Below the pieces are notes generated by a model. That model saw only the letters and a list, made by a program, of their open reading frames with translations, was not told where the DNA came from and ran no database searches. From positions 1 through 29,475 of the forward strand of contig CAZBPC010000036.1 in assembly GCA_964493715.1 (NCBI GenBank): 29,475 nt of DNA, written 5' to 3'. The number at the start of each line of letters is the position of its first letter. Position 1 is the first letter of the stretch. The position numbers and the translations under genes are program-made. The stretch comes from an uncultured archaeon (GTDB lineage: Archaea; Asgardarchaeota; Lokiarchaeia; Sigyniarchaeales; SOKP01). Shown piece by piece: positions 1,826 to 21,705 of the stretch.

Positions 1826-2653
1826 TTGGCAAGAAAGAAAAAGAAAGATGAAGAACTGGAGAAGGAAGAAGAAATTCAAGAAAAAGAGGCTAAAGAACCT
1901 CTTGGCAAGCGTTTCATTGATGATTTCGAAGAAGACTTCGAAGATGATTTAGATTTAGAAGAAGAATTAGAATTACTTGATACTGAAGATTTAGACGCTG
2001 ATATTGAAGAACCAGATAAAATTATCGATAAAGATGAAGAAAAAAAGCAACTTTATCTGAGTTGTGGAATTCACATCGGAACAAAACTATTAACTGGAGA
2101 TGCTCGAAGATTTGTTTACAGGCAAACTAATTATGGTTTATATGTTATTGATTTAACTAAAACAGATGAACGATTAAAGATAGCGGCTAAATTTTTAAGT
2201 AAATATATTGAAGAAGGAAGCGAACGAGTAATTGTCACTTCTGTACGAAGATATGGAAAAGAACCCGTAAAAAAATTCTGTAAGGTCCTAGGTTGTAAAG
2301 CTATTACTACTAGATTCATACCCGGATCCCTTACTAATCCAATCATCGATGATTACATAAAGGACGCTTCAGTTGTCCTCATTGTTGATCCACATGCCGA
2401 TAAAGTAGTTTTAAAAGAAGCAAAATTAGCTCGTGTTCCTATAGTCTCATTATTTGATACTGATGACACACTTAAAGGAATAGATCTAGCCATACCTGCC
2501 AATAATAGAGGTAAAAAAGCATTAGGAGTCGCATTTTGGCTTTTAGCCAGACAAATCATGCTTGAATTGGGAAAAATCAATAGTGAAGATGAATTCACAC
2601 CTACTCTTGAGGAATTTACTTCTAAAATCGTGCCAATGTATAAACAAACATAA
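1826..2653 (+). CDS. rps2: 30S ribosomal protein uS2 with acidic N-terminal extension
   Basis: YLSCGIHIGTK, GLYVIDL.KTDERL, RFIPGSLTNP, DP..D, DLAIPANNRG..ALG..FWLLAR are archaeal/eukaryal uS2 motifs; TTG start. Confidence 0.95.
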   Translation: MARKKKKDEELEKEEEIQEKEAKEPLGKRFIDDFEEDFEDDLDLEEELELLDTEDLDADIEEPDKIIDKDEEKKQLYLSCGIHIGTKLLTGDARRFVYRQTNYGLYVIDLTKTDERLKIAAKFLSKYIEEGSERVIVTSVRRYGKEPVKKFCKVLGCKAITTRFIPGSLTNPIIDDYIKDASVVLIVDPHADKVVLKEAKLARVPIVSLFDTDDTLKGIDLAIPANNRGKKALGVAFWLLARQIMLELGKINSEDEFTPTLEEFTSKIVPMYKQT

Positions 2654-2827: not shown

Positions 2828-3637
2828 TTAGATTATTTTTGCGAAAAGCTCTTTTGTTGATTTGTAAAATTTGTTTTCAGGAGAGATATCTAGCAAATTC
2901 TTGGCTAATAAATTCATTTTACTAATTTCTTCATCGTTAGGGAGTAAGCCCAGAAATTTTACCCTAACATCTTTTATACTATTAACTTTTTCTGTCAATA
3001 AATCTTTCATATCTTCGGGAAAACGATTACCGATAACGAGTATGTTTTTAAAATCTAAGTGGACTTCATTGGTTACTTCGACGATTCTTTCCATAGTGTG
3101 AAATCCCATTTTACTCGCATCCGTTACGATAACGAGGTCAGTCACGTCCTGTCCCGTTCTGCGAGCAAAGTGCTCTAATCCCGCGGGAGCATCTACTAAT
3201 ACGATGTCGTAATTTTTCGATAATACATCAATTATCCGCTTTAGAGTGTTATTCACACTGCAATAGCAACCTTCTCCTTCTCCGCGTCCCATTTCTAACA
3301 AGTCAAAATCGTCTAATTCTATTAAAGTGTCAAAGACTTCAGATTCTATTATTTGATCTTTCGAAACTTCGAGTGGTATTTGTCTCTTCTGAATTTTATC
3401 TTTAAGGGCTGTCATTTTTCCCCCTACTGTTTGTTTGAATCCAATATTTTCACCGATAATGTCTCCGATGTTTGCATCTGGATCTGCATCAATAACTAAT
3501 ACATTCTTGTATTTTTTCGATTCTATGAGGTGTTTAAGCATGAGTACCAGCAATGTAGATTTGCCCACGCCACCTTTTCCACTAAAAGATATAATCTTTA
3601 ACGCCACGATTTTTCTCACTCTTTCTTTTACGTTCAC
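2828..3637 (-). CDS. cooC: CooC-family nickel-insertion ATPase (CODH/ACS maturation factor)
   Basis: Deviant Walker A SGKGGVGKST, IDADPDAN, MGRGEGEGCYC (CxC Ni site), VDAPAGLEH; true start may be GTG at 3607 (GAGTGAG SD upstream). Confidence 0.85.
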   Translation of the reverse strand: MNVKERVRKIVALKIISFSGKGGVGKSTLLVLMLKHLIESKKYKNVLVIDADPDANIGDIIGENIGFKQTVGGKMTALKDKIQKRQIPLEVSKDQIIESEVFDTLIELDDFDLLEMGRGEGEGCYCSVNNTLKRIIDVLSKNYDIVLVDAPAGLEHFARRTGQDVTDLVIVTDASKMGFHTMERIVEVTNEVHLDFKNILVIGNRFPEDMKDLLTEKVNSIKDVRVKFLGLLPNDEEISKMNLLAKNLLDISPENKFYKSTKELFAKII

Positions 3638-3794: not shown

Positions 3795-4475
3795 TCAGAG
3801 AAATTTATCTAGTGTTTTCTTTCGAAAACGTATCTCAACGCTATCTCTCATTCCAGGCAAGTTAAAGCATACATCAGGTATCATTTTTTTAAAATATGGA
3901 ATATTTTCCCGTTCAGAAATAAATTGCGAATTGTATAACGTTTCAAAGATTTCTTCTCCGGAAAATTGAATATCATCAAAATAACGAATTACTGGTCTAT
4001 TCTCACTAATGCTGTCTACAACTTCCTTTAAAGGAGAGTAATATTCGCGAATTATTCCCTTTTCATTAATTGTGCTTGTTTTTTGGGAATGTTCATTATA
4101 TAAGCAAATGATACATTTAGGCCATCTTTCATGAAAATATTCTAAAACACGATCAACTACTCGATGTTTGAGCATTACGACTCCAAAGAGGACTCCCCGA
4201 TTATTTATTTCAGTTCGCGTAAATTGTTTTGCACGATATGCTTCTGTCGTCACTTCACGCATCATTCGATTAATTTTTTTTGCAAGAGGAGTACCAGAAT
4301 TTCGAAAAATTACTTCTGGAATTGAATTTATCTGTTTTATTAACAATCGTGAGAATTTATTATGCCGAGGCAGGTTTGATAATAACTCTTCTTTGGTATA
4401 TCCTTTTGCACAACCAACAACTTCCAATGGATCCCTTTTTTTTACATTATCCTCATTCACGCGATTTCCCTCCAT
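3795..4475 (-). CDS. DUF4130 / TIGR03915-like putative DNA metabolism protein
   Basis: REVTTEAYRAKQFTR, H.V...V..YF.ERW, LYNSQFISEREN..YF..MIP resemble DUF4130; overlaps the radical SAM gene by 19 nt, its usual partner. Confidence 0.75.
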   Translation of the reverse strand: MEGNRVNEDNVKKRDPLEVVGCAKGYTKEELLSNLPRHNKFSRLLIKQINSIPEVIFRNSGTPLAKKINRMMREVTTEAYRAKQFTRTEINNRGVLFGVVMLKHRVVDRVLEYFHERWPKCIICLYNEHSQKTSTINEKGIIREYYSPLKEVVDSISENRPVIRYFDDIQFSGEEIFETLYNSQFISERENIPYFKKMIPDVCFNLPGMRDSVEIRFRKKTLDKFL

Positions 4476-5785
4476 GAATTTTCTTCTGGAGATATATGTG
4501 TAAAATGGTCGAGCGTTCTTTGATTTTTTCCGTTGATTAATAAATAAGGTTCAGCTCGCTTTAATACTACTCCCACTGCTTTCAAATCTTCCCGTTTCTT
4601 AAATTCAAATTTTTTTGATTGCAAATTAATTATTCTTTTAGCGGAGATAGGTCCGATTCCTGGGACTCGAATTAAATCTTTGTATGACGCAATATTGGGA
4701 TCCAATGGGCGGCGGCCTTCAAAATATTTTTTTGCGAGATAGATCTTTGGATCACCTTTGGGTAGGTTGTCATCGTCAGTCAATATATCTTTTAAATCAT
4801 TCAATTTATAGTGATATATTCTTAATAACCAGTCACTTTGGTATAATCGATGTTCTCTAGAAAGTGAAGCTGCTTGTTGTCCAGCAAGAGGAGTTCCTTC
4901 AATAGGAATGAATGAAGAAAAATATCCTCGTCGTAAATCAATATTACGATAGCCCCAATCAATTTGTTTAAGAAGATCAAAGTCTGTCTCTCCATAGGCA
5001 GCCCCCACGACAAATTGGGTGGTTTGTCCGCTATTTAATATTGGAGCTCCATCCCAACGAAATTTCTTATATCCATCTTCACGGCGATCTTGGATCATCA
5101 TTTCTTGGTATTTAACTTGACTATCTTCTTTCATATCTTTAATAATTTTTAGAGTGTCTAAGTTATGTTTTACTCTAATTTCTTTTAACCATCGCTGGCG
5201 CAAGATTATATCATTATTAAAATCTTTTTGTTCCGCGATTTCGGATAAAAATTCTTTGGTAGAGGCTTCAGAATTAACTGAAATGCGATCCGAAAGCGTA
5301 ATGGCTTCTTTTAATAGGGATTGACTTACACCTGGTAAACATTTAAAATGAACATATCCTTGGAAATGATATTTGAATCTAAGTAGTCGTATTGCTTCTA
5401 GCATTTCTTCAGTTGTTTCATCAGCACTACCAAATACTCCTGATGAAATAAATACTCCTTCTACTACATTCATCGAATACAGTTTCATAAATGTACGGGC
5501 ATACTCTTCTGGAGTAAAACTCATTTTATGCTTACATATATGTGAGAAACAGTATTTACAGTTATATATGCACTTGTTGGTATAGAGGGTTTTGAACAGA
5601 CTCATGCAACGACCATCAGGTGTATAAGAGTGACAAATTCCAGCACTAGCCGCAGCTCCTACCCAATTTTTCGAAATTCCGAAAATTTTTGGATATTTAT
5701 CTGTACGACTGGAAGCGGTGCTGGCACATATATCGTATTTTGAATTTTCTCCTAAAACTCGTATCTTTTCTAAGGTAGACGGCAT
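4457..5785 (-). CDS. Putative DNA modification/repair radical SAM protein (TIGR03916/COG4277 type)
   Basis: KYDICAS, GICHSYTPDGRCMSLFKTL, CxxxCxxC (CIYNCKYC), GQTTQFVVGA, REHRLYQSDWLLRIY, C-terminal HhH LIRVPGIGPISAKRII. Confidence 0.92.
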   Translation of the reverse strand: MPSTLEKIRVLGENSKYDICASTASSRTDKYPKIFGISKNWVGAAASAGICHSYTPDGRCMSLFKTLYTNKCIYNCKYCFSHICKHKMSFTPEEYARTFMKLYSMNVVEGVFISSGVFGSADETTEEMLEAIRLLRFKYHFQGYVHFKCLPGVSQSLLKEAITLSDRISVNSEASTKEFLSEIAEQKDFNNDIILRQRWLKEIRVKHNLDTLKIIKDMKEDSQVKYQEMMIQDRREDGYKKFRWDGAPILNSGQTTQFVVGAAYGETDFDLLKQIDWGYRNIDLRRGYFSSFIPIEGTPLAGQQAASLSREHRLYQSDWLLRIYHYKLNDLKDILTDDDNLPKGDPKIYLAKKYFEGRRPLDPNIASYKDLIRVPGIGPISAKRIINLQSKKFEFKKREDLKAVGVVLKRAEPYLLINGKNQRTLDHFTHISPEENSWREIA

Positions 5786-5888: not shown

Positions 5889-6314
5889 TTATTTCTTATT
5901 ATTTTTAAATTCTTTAAGAATATTCCCCCTTATTTTTCTAAAATTCTCGCCTTTATCTACAAAAGTGGGAACATCCCCATGAGGTGATTTATATGAATCC
6001 ATTCTTATTCGGAAATGTGTGCGAATTATGTCTACGATCGCATCAGAATAATCCATCCAAATCCCAGCTTCAATATTTTCATTTAATAGGTCGAGCCAGA
6101 AGGTTGGAATTGAAAAGATAATTCTAGTTGTATTTGCTACTGATTTGGAGGAAGCTATAATAGTAGAAGGTCTTCCTTCTTTATCCCATTGTTTAGCTGC
6201 TGAAATTGTACCATAAGAGCATTTTTCATCAATTACAATCGAAGATTGTTTTTCTGCTTTTTCAAGTCTTTCAAGTATGCGTAAATATTTTTCTTTGTCA
6301 ATACTTCTAGGCAT
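5889..6314 (-). CDS. Putative transcription regulator, N-terminal HTH-like + ribbon-helix-helix domain
   Basis: aa 62-101 RIIFSIPTFWLDLLNENIEAGIWMDYSDAIVDIIR fits the CopG/Arc RHH pattern; aa 10-43 ...EKCSYGTISAAKQW is HTH-like; GGTGAG SD at 6321-6326. Confidence 0.6.
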   Translation of the reverse strand: MPRSIDKEKYLRILERLEKAEKQSSIVIDEKCSYGTISAAKQWDKEGRPSTIIASSKSVANTTRIIFSIPTFWLDLLNENIEAGIWMDYSDAIVDIIRTHFRIRMDSYKSPHGDVPTFVDKGENFRKIRGNILKEFKNNKK

Positions 6315-10035: not shown

Positions 10036-11568
10036 TCACTTAATTGAATATATTGAATATTTCTTATCGAGTTTCTCTTTTAATTTAGTTTGAAAGCCAA
10101 ATTGTATTGAATAAAAATCGAATACTAGATTGTCTATTTTTTTTTGTTCAAGAACATAGTTGTATCCTTGATTTTTCTTTTTTTCATTTATTATGTGTCG
10201 TACTATATTCTCGATTTTAGATTTAAAATTTGGAGTTGGAACTAAAAAAGGTAGAGCATGAATTCCCGTAATTTGTATACTGTTAGTGTTGTTTATAACT
10301 CCCTTAGCTAAGTAATTATATAAAGAACTATTTAAAATTCCTAACACATACTCAATTGAAATAGATTTATCTTTTAACATAAAACCGATTGCTTTATTTG
10401 AGTCCCAACGACAGCCTTCAGGCATGTATCGAGCTGCGAGTCGAGAACTAACCCCACTTATAACAATTCCTTCCTCTAAGAATGGAACATTAGAAGGAAT
10501 ATCATAAATTTTTATCGATTCCTCTTCCCACTTCAATGCTTCGATGATAGGACGATAATATTGGTCCCCTCCACCACGTTTTAAATATGGACACCATTCT
10601 TTATCACTAAGAGTCTCTTCTGAAATTATAGTATATTTTTTATCTTTTTCCTGAATTTTTTCATTCTTTTTGCTGAAAATCTTTGCTAGATCACTTCCTT
10701 TGACTGCAGCTATATATTTTCTGTTATCATGAGTATGCATACCTATATATCCTTGTAGATAATGCTTCATTTTTGGAGCTTTTTCAAATAGTCTTATGAT
10801 TTGTTCTTCAACTTCGAGGTGAAATATGTAAAAAGGTAAACTATGGTATTTTTTTTGTGCAATTTGATATTCAATTGGTGGATTAATGTACTCTCTTTCA
10901 TTTTCTACTCGAGGAATAACTCTCATCAAATTTCTATTTCTTTCTTCTTTATATTTTGAACCCGTGAATTTGGTCAAAATTGTAATGACTGGATTTGTAT
11001 TCACATTTTGATTATCAAATAAATTAGCCGGCGCTAACATGACTTCATTAATTTTACAATTTTCAAGAATAAACCTTCTTAGTTTTGTATGCGTGCTTAA
11101 TGTTAAAAATGAATCGCTGGTGATAAATCCCAGTTTTCCCCCTTCCTTTAAACGCCAAATTGAATTTACAATGAACATTGAATAGGTTTCGTGAGCATTA
11201 ATCTTTCCATAAATCTTTTTTAGTTCAGTTTTGTTTTTTCTCACGTATTTACTCGCTTTGTTCAAGTAAGGAGGATTTCCAACAATAAAATCGTATTCAT
11301 TATAACATTCTGAATTAAACGAAAGTAAATTATCTAAAATTTTAAAGTGTACACCTAAATCTTTAATATAATCTTTATAATCGGGATTTATATCATAGCA
11401 AAAGATTTGGGATTTATTTACACCCGACTTTATTAGGGATTTAACAAAAACGCCGGTACCTACACATGGATCTAATACTTTATGTGTTTCTTTTATTTTT
11501 CCTAAACTAAATACAATATATTCTGCAGTTTTTGGGGGTGTAAAGACAGTCCCTAATTCGTTTTCCAT
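10036..11568 (-). CDS. N6-adenine DNA methyltransferase, gamma class (M.TaqI/Eco57I-M-like), no cognate REase seen
   Basis: GTVFTP, motif I VLDPCVGTGVF, motif IV IVGNPPY, LKEGGKLGFIT, TaqI_C-like YVLGILNSSL. Confidence 0.88.
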   Translation of the reverse strand: MENELGTVFTPPKTAEYIVFSLGKIKETHKVLDPCVGTGVFVKSLIKSGVNKSQIFCYDINPDYKDYIKDLGVHFKILDNLLSFNSECYNEYDFIVGNPPYLNKASKYVRKNKTELKKIYGKINAHETYSMFIVNSIWRLKEGGKLGFITSDSFLTLSTHTKLRRFILENCKINEVMLAPANLFDNQNVNTNPVITILTKFTGSKYKEERNRNLMRVIPRVENEREYINPPIEYQIAQKKYHSLPFYIFHLEVEEQIIRLFEKAPKMKHYLQGYIGMHTHDNRKYIAAVKGSDLAKIFSKKNEKIQEKDKKYTIISEETLSDKEWCPYLKRGGGDQYYRPIIEALKWEEESIKIYDIPSNVPFLEEGIVISGVSSRLAARYMPEGCRWDSNKAIGFMLKDKSISIEYVLGILNSSLYNYLAKGVINNTNSIQITGIHALPFLVPTPNFKSKIENIVRHIINEKKKNQGYNYVLEQKKIDNLVFDFYSIQFGFQTKLKEKLDKKYSIYSIK

Positions 11569-18578: not shown

Positions 18579-19973
18579 ATGGAAGATATAAAGAAGATAT
18601 ATGACGTGGTTATAGTAGGAGCTGGGACCGGGGGAAGCACTGCTGCCCGATTTGCTACCCAAAAAGGTCTTGAAGTGTGTCTCATTGATCGGAAAGTAAA
18701 AAATGAGATTGGAAATAAGATTTGTGGAGACGCGGTAGGTACAGAGATTTTTGATTTTTTAAATATCAAACATCCAATAAATGAAGAATTATCTTGCCAC
18801 ATAAAAGGAGCAAAAATATATTCTCCAAATATGGAGAAATGCATAAATTTATTAGATCCAAAACAAGCTGGTTATATTGTTAATCGTTTAGAATTTGGTC
18901 AACGCCTTCTGGATGATGCTCTAAATGCAGGCGTGACATCTTTTTTAGATGACACCAACGCTTTAGAGTTATTATATGAAAAGAATATAGTATCAGGTAT
19001 AAGGGTCAAATTAAAAAATGGAGAAAAAAGAGAAATCAGAGCCAAAATTGTTATAGATGCTTCTGGATTTTATTCACCACTAAGGAAGACTATAAGAAGT
19101 ACTATTGTTGAAAAAATAATTCCAAAGGAAGATAGTATATTATGTTACCGAGAAATAGTCAAATTTCCTCCATCTGAACATAAAGTACAAGATCCAGAAT
19201 ACATAACTATTATTTTAGATAAAAAACGAGCTCCTGGTGGTTATATTTGGTATTTCCCAAAAAATGAGTCTTCAATTAATATCGGATTAGGAGTATTTAT
19301 GGATTATAAAGGTAAAGTTAAAGAATTTTATCAAAACAATGTATTCAAAACTTATATTAAGACATCAAAGTATGAGATACTCTCATCTGGTGGTGGAGTT
19401 GTACCGATTAGGCGTCCATTGTGGTCATGTGCAGATGATGGGATAATGTTAATAGGGGATGCGGCATGTCAAGTAAACCCTCTACATGGAGGGGGTATTG
19501 ATCCTTCAATGAGGGGAGGATTCTTCGCTGCTAATGCAGCATTTGAAGCGATTCAAAAGGGTGATTATACTCTTAAGTCTTTGTGGAAGTATAATGTTGA
19601 TGTGATGAGAAGTTTCGGAGCGGATTATGCCTCCTTAGATTTATTAAGGCAAGTACTTCAAGTTTTTACTAATGAGGAACTTAATTTCGGATTGGGAAAT
19701 GATTTATTGTCAGGTGAGGAAATCTTAGAAATTTCGTCAACTGGGGGTCTTAAATTATCTATTTTTGATATGGCTTCAAAACTAATTAAAGGGATATCAA
19801 AACCGGATTTACTCTTAGATTTAAATTATCTTCGGATAAGGATGAAAGAAATATCTTCAATTTATAAGAGATTTCCAACAGATTTAAAGGAATTCGAAAG
19901 ATGGAAGTCTAATGTAATAGAGGTTCAAAATAAAGTAAAAAAAATGTTAATAAATACAAAAAGAGTAAATTAA
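18579..19973 (+). CDS. Digeranylgeranylglycerophospholipid reductase (GGR)
   Basis: YDVVIVGAGTGG, KICGDAV, APGGYIWYFPK, GDAACQVNPLHGGGI; operon with GGGPS. Confidence 0.9.
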   Translation: MEDIKKIYDVVIVGAGTGGSTAARFATQKGLEVCLIDRKVKNEIGNKICGDAVGTEIFDFLNIKHPINEELSCHIKGAKIYSPNMEKCINLLDPKQAGYIVNRLEFGQRLLDDALNAGVTSFLDDTNALELLYEKNIVSGIRVKLKNGEKREIRAKIVIDASGFYSPLRKTIRSTIVEKIIPKEDSILCYREIVKFPPSEHKVQDPEYITIILDKKRAPGGYIWYFPKNESSINIGLGVFMDYKGKVKEFYQNNVFKTYIKTSKYEILSSGGGVVPIRRPLWSCADDGIMLIGDAACQVNPLHGGGIDPSMRGGFFAANAAFEAIQKGDYTLKSLWKYNVDVMRSFGADYASLDLLRQVLQVFTNEELNFGLGNDLLSGEEILEISSTGGLKLSIFDMASKLIKGISKPDLLLDLNYLRIRMKEISSIYKRFPTDLKEFERWKSNVIEVQNKVKKMLINTKRVN

Positions 19974-19992
19974 TTATAATCAGTTAAAAAAA

Positions 19993-20811
19993 ATGGTAAA
20001 TGTTTTGTCAAGCAAAATTATTGAATTCAATACTTATAAATACATCATAAACAAACTAAACAAGGAAGGAGCATTACATTTTTCCTTAATCGATCCTGAT
20101 CCTGTTAAACAAAGCACAAAAAAGGCTGCAAAAATGGCTAAATATGCTGAAACGGCGGGATCAGATGCGATTCTTATAGGTGGGAGCACTATCTTTGATC
20201 AAAGATTTGTAGATGATACCATCATTGCGATTAAGGAAGTTGTGGATATACCTGTAATTATCTTCCCTGGTGGAATCTCAAATGTTTCAAGAGAGGCGGA
20301 TGCCATTCTTTTTATGTCTCTATTAAATTCCGAAGATCCATATTTTATTATTGGTCAACAAGCACTTGCATCATATACTGTTAAAAAAGCTAATTTAGAA
20401 CCTATTTCTACTGGTTATTTGATCATTGAACCGGGAGCTACAGCTGGATGGATCGGAAAAGCCAAGTTGCTTCCAAGAAAGAAACCAAAATTAACAGCAG
20501 CATATTCATTAGCAGCAGAAATGCTTGGTTTTAAAATAATTTATTTAGAGGCGGGATCAGGGAGTGAAAGAATACCTGCTGATATCATTCAACTCTGCTC
20601 AAATTTTGTGAACATTCCTATTATTGCAGGTGGTGGTATCAATTCAAAAGAAATAGCTAGAGAATTTGTAAAAGCTGGAGCGGACATTATTGTAATGGGT
20701 ACATTTTTAGAAGATAACATTTTAAAAGATAATGGGACTTCCCTTAAAGTCATAATAGATGAAATAAAAAAAACGGGAAAAGAATGTCCAAAAACATTTT
20801 GTTTAAAATAA
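19993..20811 (+). CDS. Geranylgeranylglyceryl phosphate synthase (group II GGGPS)
   Basis: SLIDPD, DAILIGGS, IIFPG, ADAILFMSLLNS, GYLIIEPG.TAGWIG, YLEAGSG, GGGI. Confidence 0.95.
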   Translation: MVNVLSSKIIEFNTYKYIINKLNKEGALHFSLIDPDPVKQSTKKAAKMAKYAETAGSDAILIGGSTIFDQRFVDDTIIAIKEVVDIPVIIFPGGISNVSREADAILFMSLLNSEDPYFIIGQQALASYTVKKANLEPISTGYLIIEPGATAGWIGKAKLLPRKKPKLTAAYSLAAEMLGFKIIYLEAGSGSERIPADIIQLCSNFVNIPIIAGGGINSKEIAREFVKAGADIIVMGTFLEDNILKDNGTSLKVIIDEIKKTGKECPKTFCLK

Positions 20812-20832
20812 ATAGCGCTAGGTGTTTTTGAT

Positions 20833-21705
20833 TTGAGGTTGAAGGATACTATTGAAATACTTCGCCCTATTAATTGTTTAATGGGAGCTTTAACAGTAAT
20901 AATCGGCTTATTAAATACAAGAACTTCTATCTCATTCCCTTTAATTGTTTCTAATTTCATTTTAGGAACTTTAACTTATATATTTCTGGCAGGTTCTGGA
21001 ATGGTAATTAATGATTTCTATGATTATGAAATTGATAAAATAAATCGACCAGAACGACCTATTCCCAGAGGATCTATTAGTCTAAATCAAGCAAAAATGT
21101 TGTTTTTTATATATTTATCAATTGGGTTACTATTTAGTGTACTTAACGTTATGATATTTAATTTAAATTACACTATCGTTGTTATAGCTACCTTTTTTGG
21201 ATTTATAGCATGGGTTTATGCAAAATGGGGTAAAAAAAGTGGATTTCCTGGAAATATAATTGTTAGTATTTCATTTTCTATTGGAATGATTTATGGGGCA
21301 TTACTAAATAGTTCACTAATTCCTAACTATATTTACTACTTCTTTTTAACTTCGTTTTTTCTGCTTTTATCACGTGAGATAATTAAGGGATGTGAGGATA
21401 TTGAAGGAGATAAAAAAGAAGGGGTAAAAACACTTGCAATTCGGATTGGTACTAAAAAAGCAACCACCTTTAGCATGATTTCAGCCTTATTTGCTTTACT
21501 ATTCTTCATTTTACCTCTCTTTACAAATATAATAAATCCTTTTCTATTTTTAATAACAATGAGCTCTGGATTAATAATTGTTGTTTTTGCAATTTACCAT
21601 ATGATTAAATCAACTATGCAAAGAAACGATTTTAAGCGTATAAGCTTATTTTTAAAAATAGGAGCACTATTAGGATTATTATCATTTGTTTTTGCTAGTT
21701 TATGA
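20833..21705 (+). CDS. Digeranylgeranylglyceryl phosphate synthase (UbiA family, DGGGPS)
   Basis: LRPINC, NDFYDYEIDKINRPERPIPRG, REIIKGCEDIEGD...G.KTL; follows GGGPS. Confidence 0.92.
   Translation: MRLKDTIEILRPINCLMGALTVIIGLLNTRTSISFPLIVSNFILGTLTYIFLAGSGMVINDFYDYEIDKINRPERPIPRGSISLNQAKMLFFIYLSIGLLFSVLNVMIFNLNYTIVVIATFFGFIAWVYAKWGKKSGFPGNIIVSISFSIGMIYGALLNSSLIPNYIYYFFLTSFFLLLSREIIKGCEDIEGDKKEGVKTLAIRIGTKKATTFSMISALFALLFFILPLFTNIINPFLFLITMSSGLIIVVFAIYHMIKSTMQRNDFKRISLFLKIGALLGLLSFVFASL

Follow-up and report, generated by a model that had tools for sequence, protein, structure and literature searches.

Does an archaeal radical S-adenosylmethionine (SAM) enzyme work on the sliding clamp? This question is raised by two neighbouring genes in a 29,475-nucleotide (nt) stretch of DNA from an uncultured Asgard archaeon (GenBank assembly GCA_964493715.1, contig CAZBPC010000036.1), referred to here in its full length as the window. 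The first gene encodes a radical SAM protein with a helix-hairpin-helix (HhH) domain and the second a DUF4130-domain protein, and both products carry tails that resemble the PCNA-interacting peptide (PIP) box. Our analysis indicates that the pair probably encodes a clamp-tethered, heterodimeric radical SAM enzyme for DNA repair or modification, the archaeal form of the TIGR03916/DUF4130 (COG4277) module. Clamp association is the simplest reading because the motifs are kept in archaea, and because the radical SAM protein bears a PIP-type peptide in archaea and a beta-clamp-type peptide in bacteria.

PIP-type tails in archaea

The radical SAM protein carries the motif QRTLDHFT, which begins 18 residues past the HhH domain, right after the 'ING' strand that closes the HhH module. 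The last eight residues of the DUF4130 protein, immediately before the stop codon, read KKTLDKFL. A preliminary description of the locus had placed both tails there, and its coordinates were exact (Table 1). According to PMC4929162, the PIP motif takes the form QXXhXXaa (h, hydrophobic; a, aromatic) and is carried by PolB, PolD, RFC, Fen1 and RNase H2. Q, L and F of QRTLDHFT match this consensus, and the eighth residue, T, is F, I or T in relatives. The pattern Q..[LIMV]..[FYW] was present in the tail of all 120 near homologues among the matches listed (77-100% identity); when these tails were shuffled 1000 times, it turned up in 5.4 on average and in 15 at most. The bacterial clamp pattern was found in none of the 120. 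In a second homologue set, obtained with a Woesearchaeota query, Q..h..a lay a few residues from the C-terminus in 103 of the 120 best matches, and the clamp pattern was again absent. All 20 of these DPANN-type matches that bore an organism name were archaeal (Woese-, Aenigm-, Nano-, Alti-, Hod- and Helarchaeota, Methanofastidiosa), those of Methanofastidiosa having Y at the glutamine place. Across the archaeal set, the clamp motif occurred in 0/239 radical SAM tails. The near homologues are kin, and shuffling rules out composition and not shared descent; these counts therefore show long retention of the motif and not independent events. Several homologues (P0077, P0095, P0105 and others) stop at the motif, so the 13 residues that follow it here appear dispensable.

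The DUF4130 tail showed a comparable pattern. Among the matches listed, [LIM]..[FYW][FYWLIMV] occurred within the last 20 residues of 115 of 120 homologues, at the exact C-terminus in 111, and shuffled tails gave a mean of 7.0 and a maximum of 16. The 115 motif-bearing tails share the consensus KRFRNKK[IL]N[DE][FY][LF]; in KKTLDKFL itself, L, F and L match the PIP consensus and K takes the glutamine place. At 80 DPANN-type metagenome loci, where DUF4130 proteins were detected with a hidden Markov model built in this analysis, 49 of 54 distinct downstream tails had h..a in the last 20 residues (shuffled mean 10.7, maximum 22); the glutamine place held S, C, T, N or K, and Q once only. At 18 DUF4130 loci of the phylum, the motif fell within the last 14 residues in 13 and within the last 40 in 17, and in L267, L268 and L271 it was followed by a lysine-rich extension. 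Conservation of both motifs in archaeal homologues, on which the preliminary description had staked its proposal, was thus found, and the residues around the motifs vary among orthologues.

In AlphaFold2 models, both motifs lie on a flexible terminal segment, that of the DUF4130 protein at the exact C-terminus and that of the radical SAM protein where model confidence falls. The radical SAM model has a mean predicted local distance difference test score (pLDDT) of 86.5 and a predicted template modelling score of 0.85. Its pLDDT is 92 at residues 411-420, 66 at 421-430 and below 50 at 430-442, with a short helix predicted at 426-429. The DUF4130 model (mean pLDDT 76.6) has low confidence over the last 50 residues and a short predicted helix at 222-225.

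The host genome (3.68 Mb, estimated 100% complete, the window being its contig C36) contains a PCNA gene (contig C3, 272 residues), and Q..h..aa was found in the last 14 residues of 19 of its 2600 open reading frames (ORFs) of at least 150 residues. The pattern occurred in only 2 when a control window inside the proteins was searched, and in 7 when the sequences were shuffled. Classical clients with such tails are listed in Table 1. The RNase HII tail has N-[KR]-K-I-[TS]-x-[FY]-h in the host and four relatives of its family (5/5), whereas RNase HII of other families of the phylum has Q-type motifs at the same place. This comparison suggests that the Q-less form N/K-K-K-[IL]-x-x-[FY]-h is the lineage's own PIP form on a classical client. 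The DUF4130 tail, judged by its sequence, is of the same form as the host RNase HII tail.

The pair shares with archaeal PCNA clients (Fen1, PolD DP2, RNase HII, NucS and NreA) a short h..aa peptide on a flexible tail, at or near the C-terminus and often after basic residues, which is also the style of the host's Fen1, PolD DP2 and RNase HII. Those clients, however, are nucleases, polymerases and factors with measured PCNA binding, whereas the window's pair, a putative client, is a radical SAM enzyme, has tails on both subunits of one enzyme and has a Q-less tail on one of them.

Two further observations concern PCNA and its possible clients in this genome. PIP-type tails were also seen at C1:73693-74493, C141:3316-3888, C3:49299-49922, C4:31200-31961 and C58:8673-10217, five loci that comprise two DUF72 proteins, a deoxynucleoside/thymidylate-kinase-like protein, a RadA/Rad51-like paralogue and a leucine-rich-repeat protein, all candidate PCNA clients. 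In the host and in four genomes of the same family (L203-L207), PCNA is lengthened at its C-terminus by an acidic stretch whose last residues are D/E-D/E-F/Y (e.g. ...EDMDDF), and PCNA in most other families of the phylum stops at the conserved LAPR.E.

Bacterial relatives and the tree of radical SAM cores

Bacterial loci were collected with a degenerate DNA pattern based on a peptide that the family conserves, which returned at least 120 stretches, 80 of them with flanking DNA. All 80 were titled as bacteria, from many phyla, and 71 held a complete enzyme with the HhH domain. Because the scan returned bacteria only, the named non-Asgard archaea described above come from protein records only. 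After the HhH domain, Q[LMI].[LMFI][FWL] was present in 58 of the 71 bacterial enzymes (shuffled mean 1.7, maximum 8) and the strict clamp form in 50 (shuffled mean 0.17, maximum 2). This bears out the statement in the preliminary description that bacterial members often end in a QLxLF-like motif; QL[SD]LF is the beta-clamp-binding consensus. Penta- and hexapeptide clamp-binding motifs are reportedly described in a 2026 preprint. The PIP pattern followed the HhH domain in only 2/71, under the shuffled mean of 4.2 (maximum 10). Bacterial tails vary in length, and the clamp motif is often terminal after a variable linker, and 14 of the 58 proteins end on it; among the 13 tails that failed to match, most carry near variants.

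A second peptide was noticed in these tails. Twelve of the 71 bacterial radical SAM proteins (e.g. L007, L010, L014, L025, L031 and L040) end in x-G-[EQSI]-hydrophobic (...TGEL, ...TGQL), a few to ~20 residues past the clamp-type motif, and 10 of the 12 carry both.

Of the 70 bacterial loci scanned, 56 had a DUF4130 gene downstream of the radical SAM one. Twelve of these 56 were fused to a uracil-DNA glycosylase (UDG) domain, so that the UDG link is common but not universal in bacteria; a link to a UDG-family domain (TIGR03914), whether fused to DUF4130 or close by, is part of the TIGR03916 family definition. Neither a clamp nor a PIP-like pattern was found in the last 30 residues of 43 complete stand-alone bacterial DUF4130 proteins, and the clamp pattern was absent throughout the 12 UDG-fused ones. 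The DUF4130 tail of the window reaches past the conserved domain end, where the bacterial proteins stop without a motif, which argues that the second tail is an archaeal addition. Of the swap of clamp motifs proposed in the preliminary description, the part concerning the radical SAM protein therefore stands, with a PIP-type motif in archaea and a beta-clamp type in bacteria, and the part concerning DUF4130 does not.

We placed the split on a FastTree phylogeny of 224 radical SAM cores from which the tails had been cut off. One clade (support 95) of 66 rows comprised 60 with PIP, 6 with neither motif and 0 with the clamp motif; the 31 rows of known archaeal origin all fell here. A second clade of 84 rows, with all the bacterial-named ones, comprised 61 with the clamp motif, 19 with neither, 2 with both and 2 with PIP; the few bacterial 'PIP' rows are pattern matches inside clamp-type motifs or isolated cases. 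The exchange of PIP and clamp motifs was thus essentially a single event that followed the archaeal/bacterial split. Repeated exchange, that is convergence, was considered and rejected, as the tree shows one split and no good repeated case. Five other radical SAM homologues (P0288, P0313, P0337, P0338 and P0367) form a separate clade (support 99) with neither pattern. Their long tail contains a conserved '...YP.Q.GK...' stretch, and four of the five end in CR; this may represent a further, third type of tail for docking or regulation.

The window's pair resembles the bacterial SOS-linked COG1573-COG4277 operon (TIGR03914/TIGR03915/TIGR03916) in having the same two families, arranged alike and with genes that often overlap, the same CX3CX2C and HhH architecture, and a clamp-type peptide after the HhH domain. 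It differs from it in the kind of this peptide, which is of the QLSLF type in bacteria, in the second PIP-like tail on DUF4130, in the ~45-residue radical SAM insertion found in the window's order, in a TIGR03915 score far below the cut-off and in the absence of any UDG found in the host genome, where bacteria have UDG fusions. LexA control, which PMC8565304 gives as predicted in Bacteroidetes and reported in Verrucomicrobia and Alphaproteobacteria, is inapplicable in an archaeon.

Domain architecture and gene neighbourhood

The radical SAM protein matched TIGR03916 with 328.6 bits against a curated cut-off of 343.5 (E 6.2e-98, profile positions 3-382 of 415). The insertion and the different tail accompany this shortfall, and the protein is treated here as a divergent member of the family. 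The insertion is missing from DPANN-type and bacterial homologues and from other families of the phylum, and most homologue matches split in two (query 1-~205 and ~249-428). It is modelled by AlphaFold2 as helices (pLDDT 62-88). Long radical SAM forms (~430-471 residues) correspond to the window's order and short forms (385-400 residues) to other families of the phylum. The three cluster-binding cysteines were invariant in a 12-sequence alignment and at least 90% conserved in a 38-sequence alignment. The DUF4130 protein scored 43.9 bits with PF13566, above the gathering threshold of 27 (residues 51-200, profile positions 16-137 of 146), and 34 bits with TIGR03915, below the cut-off of 112.25 (profile positions 88-233 of 243, the N-terminal third being unrecognised). 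By these scores it is classed as a DUF4130-domain protein and not as a TIGR03915 equivalog.

Table 1. Features of the gene pair in the window and PIP-type tails of classical PCNA clients in the host genome (aa, amino acids)
Feature	Position in window (nt)	Strand	Residues or tail	Basis
Radical SAM/HhH subunit gene, TIGR03916 type (COG4277)	4457..5785	-	442 aa	ORF; TIGR03916, PF04055, PF12836
Radical_SAM domain PF04055		-	aa 68-206	Pfam
CX3CX2C cluster-binding motif	5549..5572	-	C72, C76, C79	translation and alignments
Insertion of ~45 aa	5036..5173	-	roughly aa 205-250	gap in homologue alignments
HhH domain	4574..4705	-	aa 361-404	HHH_3 PF12836, E 3.1e-9
PIP-box-type motif QRTLDHFT	4499..4522	-	aa 422-429	translation, homologue conservation
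Post-motif stretch of 13 aa, predicted disordered; last codons overlap DUF4130 start	4460..4498	-	aa 430-442	pLDDT <50
DUF4130 subunit gene	3795..4475	-	226 aa	ORF; PF13566
C-terminal PIP-like tail KKTLDKFL, preceded by basic run RFR	3798..3821	-	aa 219-226	translation, homologues
Fen1			QISLDSFFK	host genome
Fen1 paralogue			QKKLLEF	host genome
PolD large subunit DP2			QQKLSDFF	host genome
RNase HII			NKKITDYV	host genome

The nearest folds to the radical SAM model were HydE, NifB, viperin, PylB and BioB, all generic full-barrel radical SAM proteins, and among solved structures the sequence matched only ComEA-type HhH domains. Kinship with spore photoproduct lyase (SPL) was not supported, since no SPL appeared among the Pfam and NCBIfam matches or the listed fold matches, and the 'SplB-like' label used in PMC3765255 was not borne out for the window's protein. 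The NreB/SplB-like pair described in PMC4929162 is similar in joining an archaeal PIP-bearing DNA repair factor to a radical SAM gene. Unlike that pair, neither window protein matches an SPL or Nre model, and here the radical SAM protein itself bears the motif.

No solved structure was matched by the DUF4130 sequence. The fold matches of its model were weak and nearly all to the DHH family (Foldseek E 0.05-0.4, TM 0.26-0.38), which indicates a weak likeness to DHH/DHHA1 phosphoesterases (RecJ, NrnA, PAP phosphatase, Cdc45) and not membership. This agrees with a 2026 bioRxiv preprint (10.64898/2026.08.19.745780) that gives DHH-type catalytic residues as not conserved in DUF4130 and presents a confident predicted DUF4130-radical SAM heterodimer from a Lachnospiraceae bacterium.

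The two ORFs share 19 nt, the DUF4130 start lying inside the radical SAM gene, and a DUF4130 gene followed the radical SAM gene in 18 of 20 loci sampled across the phylum. TIGR03916 was matched at E <= 1e-20 in 99 of 299 genomes of the phylum and above the curated cut-off in 56, and the search also gave matches in its controls Caulobacter vibrioides and Bacteroides thetaiotaomicron. The closest protein relatives are named as Asgard archaea (Promethearchaeota/Lokiarchaeota, Thor-, Hod-, Odin- and Hermodarchaeota). At L281 (G006) and L282 (G076), the radical SAM gene has no detected DUF4130 neighbour and V at the aromatic place of the motif, and the module may be decaying in the family of these two.

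A conserved third gene beside the pair was rejected: neither the upstream 141-residue ORF (5889..6314) nor the downstream MinD/ParA-like ATPase (2828..3637) was recovered by BLASTP (E <= 1e-5) in 20 phylum loci, which belong to other families than the window's own. The upstream ORF also had no Pfam, NCBIfam or PADLOC match. The earlier remark that no UdgX-type glycosylase is adjacent was confirmed and can be widened, as none of the 29 window ORFs scanned showed a UDG-family domain and the UDG superfamily PF03167 gave 0 matches genome-wide at E <= 0.001, a search that matched 13 of 14 control genomes. A defence-system reading was rejected because PADLOC models match neither the radical SAM nor the DUF4130 protein.

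Elsewhere in the window, ribosomal protein S2 (1826-2653, plus strand) has an N-terminal extension of ~75 residues, rich in lysine and acidic residues, and its Pfam match starts at residue 78. About 4 kb from the pair, a 510-residue protein (10036-11568, minus strand) with Eco57I-type, N-6 DNA methylase and TaqI-like specificity domains is probably the DNA methyltransferase of a restriction-modification system. A run of ether-lipid genes (18579-21705, plus strand) encodes a geranylgeranyl reductase-like flavoprotein, a PcrB-family protein (geranylgeranylglyceryl phosphate synthase-like) and a UbiA prenyltransferase.

Proposed mechanism, alternatives and meaning

In the mechanism that we propose, the CX3CX2C motif of the radical SAM subunit would hold a [4Fe-4S] cluster and SAM, the HhH domain would bind DNA, and the PIP-type peptide would follow; the DUF4130 subunit would probably hold the nucleic-acid substrate. 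Both tail peptides would fit into PCNA's hydrophobic pocket, perhaps each on a different subunit of the same ring, and so keep the enzyme on DNA loaded with the clamp, whether at a primer-template junction or at a stalled fork. A base at such a site would be repaired or modified by means of a 5'-deoxyadenosyl radical, which would make the process one of replication-coupled lesion repair or modification, as the preliminary description had suggested. Bacterial orthologues would act likewise from the beta clamp, to which only their radical SAM subunit would be tied, by its QLSLF-type motif. No literature linking the TIGR03916/COG4277 family to clamp motifs was found outside subscription journals and closed supplements, and a literature search found no biochemical study of the pair; the functional hints found were only bacterial SOS regulation and one structure-prediction preprint.

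Several observations weigh against this proposal. On the radical SAM protein, QRTLDHFT has T and not an aromatic residue at the eighth place and lies 13 residues from the C-terminus, and in phylum loci L281 and L282 the aromatic place is V. Part of the motif may be structural, because it starts directly after the last strand and is, at pLDDT 66, not disordered; moreover, P0312 (Armatimonadota) and P0272 retain Q..L there together with a separate downstream clamp motif. On the DUF4130 protein, the glutamine place is K in the window; of the 115 homologues with the motif, 105 have N there, 9 have K and 1 has Y, with Q in 0/120 among the matches listed. The Q-less pattern is little informative, since shuffling alone yields the shorter h..a in an average of 32 tails out of 120, and the K/R-rich run that precedes the motif could bind DNA instead. 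As to the split between domains of life, the bacterial sample consists of the first 80 loci from a pattern scan and is not a random draw, and a single event on the tree amounts to one evolutionary observation followed by long retention.

The alternative that survives best keeps the clamp tether but removes repair: the enzyme would mark DNA with a modification once the fork has passed, for epigenetic or anti-virus ends, or its target would be RNA primers or Okazaki fragments. We consider this possible but unlikely. The NCBI family name reads 'DNA modification/repair', the archaeal module has no UDG partner and its genome no UDG-family match, and we know of no SOS system in archaea that would argue for damage induction. 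In addition, the preprint (10.64898/2026.08.19.745780) makes a case for modification and for a narrow channel that would take single-stranded nucleic acid. In bacteria, however, control by LexA (predicted or reported; PMC8565304 and PMC3765255) and frequent UDG fusion point to damage processing. Neither protein is matched by PADLOC defence models, and the closest methylase or restriction gene is not next to the pair but lies ~4 kb off, beyond other genes. The enzyme may nonetheless have a role in modification.

It is distinctly less probable that only the radical SAM subunit docks on PCNA and that the DUF4130 tail is a basic DNA-binding tail, or a clasp for the partner or another protein, with a superficial likeness to PIP. 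The preliminary description had given both proteins PIP-box-like tails; Q, L and F of the radical SAM motif fit the consensus, whereas the DUF4130 tail lacks the glutamine, which is missing from the near homologues among the matches listed and appears once in the DPANN-type tails. Bacterial DUF4130 proteins do without a clamp motif (0/43 and 0/12), basic residues precede the tail, and L267, L268 and L271 have the lysine-rich extension past the motif. Against this stands the host RNase HII, which shares N/K-K-K-[IL]-x-[DE]-[FY]-h where other lineages of the phylum have the Q-type. Asgard loci and DPANN-type metagenome loci alike preserve the spacing of hydrophobic and aromatic residues and the placement at the very C-terminus, and the AlphaFold2 model gives no confident packing of the tail onto the domain.

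That both tails are structural elements of the heterodimer (for example, one closing the HhH module and the other clasping the subunits together), their PIP likeness being coincidental, is very improbable: Q..L directly after the last strand at moderate model confidence, its remnant in deep-branching homologues with a clamp motif such as P0312 and P0272, and a large predicted heterodimer interface (3,666 square angstroms in 10.64898/2026.08.19.745780) would suit it, but a structural element would not be exchanged, domain by domain, for the peptide of the cell's own clamp (clamp motif in 0/239 archaeal tails and 58/71 named bacteria, PIP in 2/71 bacteria), nor does it fit bacterial radical SAM tails of variable length with an often terminal motif and bacterial DUF4130 proteins without a tail.

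Clamp tethering of the archaeal enzyme remains our preferred reading. A bolder version, which we put forward as tentative and somewhat doubtful, is that the whole COG4277/DUF4130 family is an obligate sliding-clamp client, the first radical SAM enzyme in the replisome or repair-synthesis toolbelt, that from PCNA or the beta clamp it directly reverses or processes, by radical chemistry, a replication-blocking base lesion that no other pathway handles, and that the archaeal heterodimer grips two PCNA subunits. The family occurs in roughly a fifth of prokaryotes. A clamp peptide that changes with the domain of life suggests that the enzyme works on clamp-loaded DNA. If so, a radical SAM enzyme would join the clients of the sliding clamp, and the search for its lesion or modification would narrow to intermediates of replication or repair synthesis. 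The tail peptides would offer simple experimental handles on the widespread TIGR03916/DUF4130 pair, and the Asgard PCNA toolbelt, which resembles the eukaryotic one, would gain a new client.

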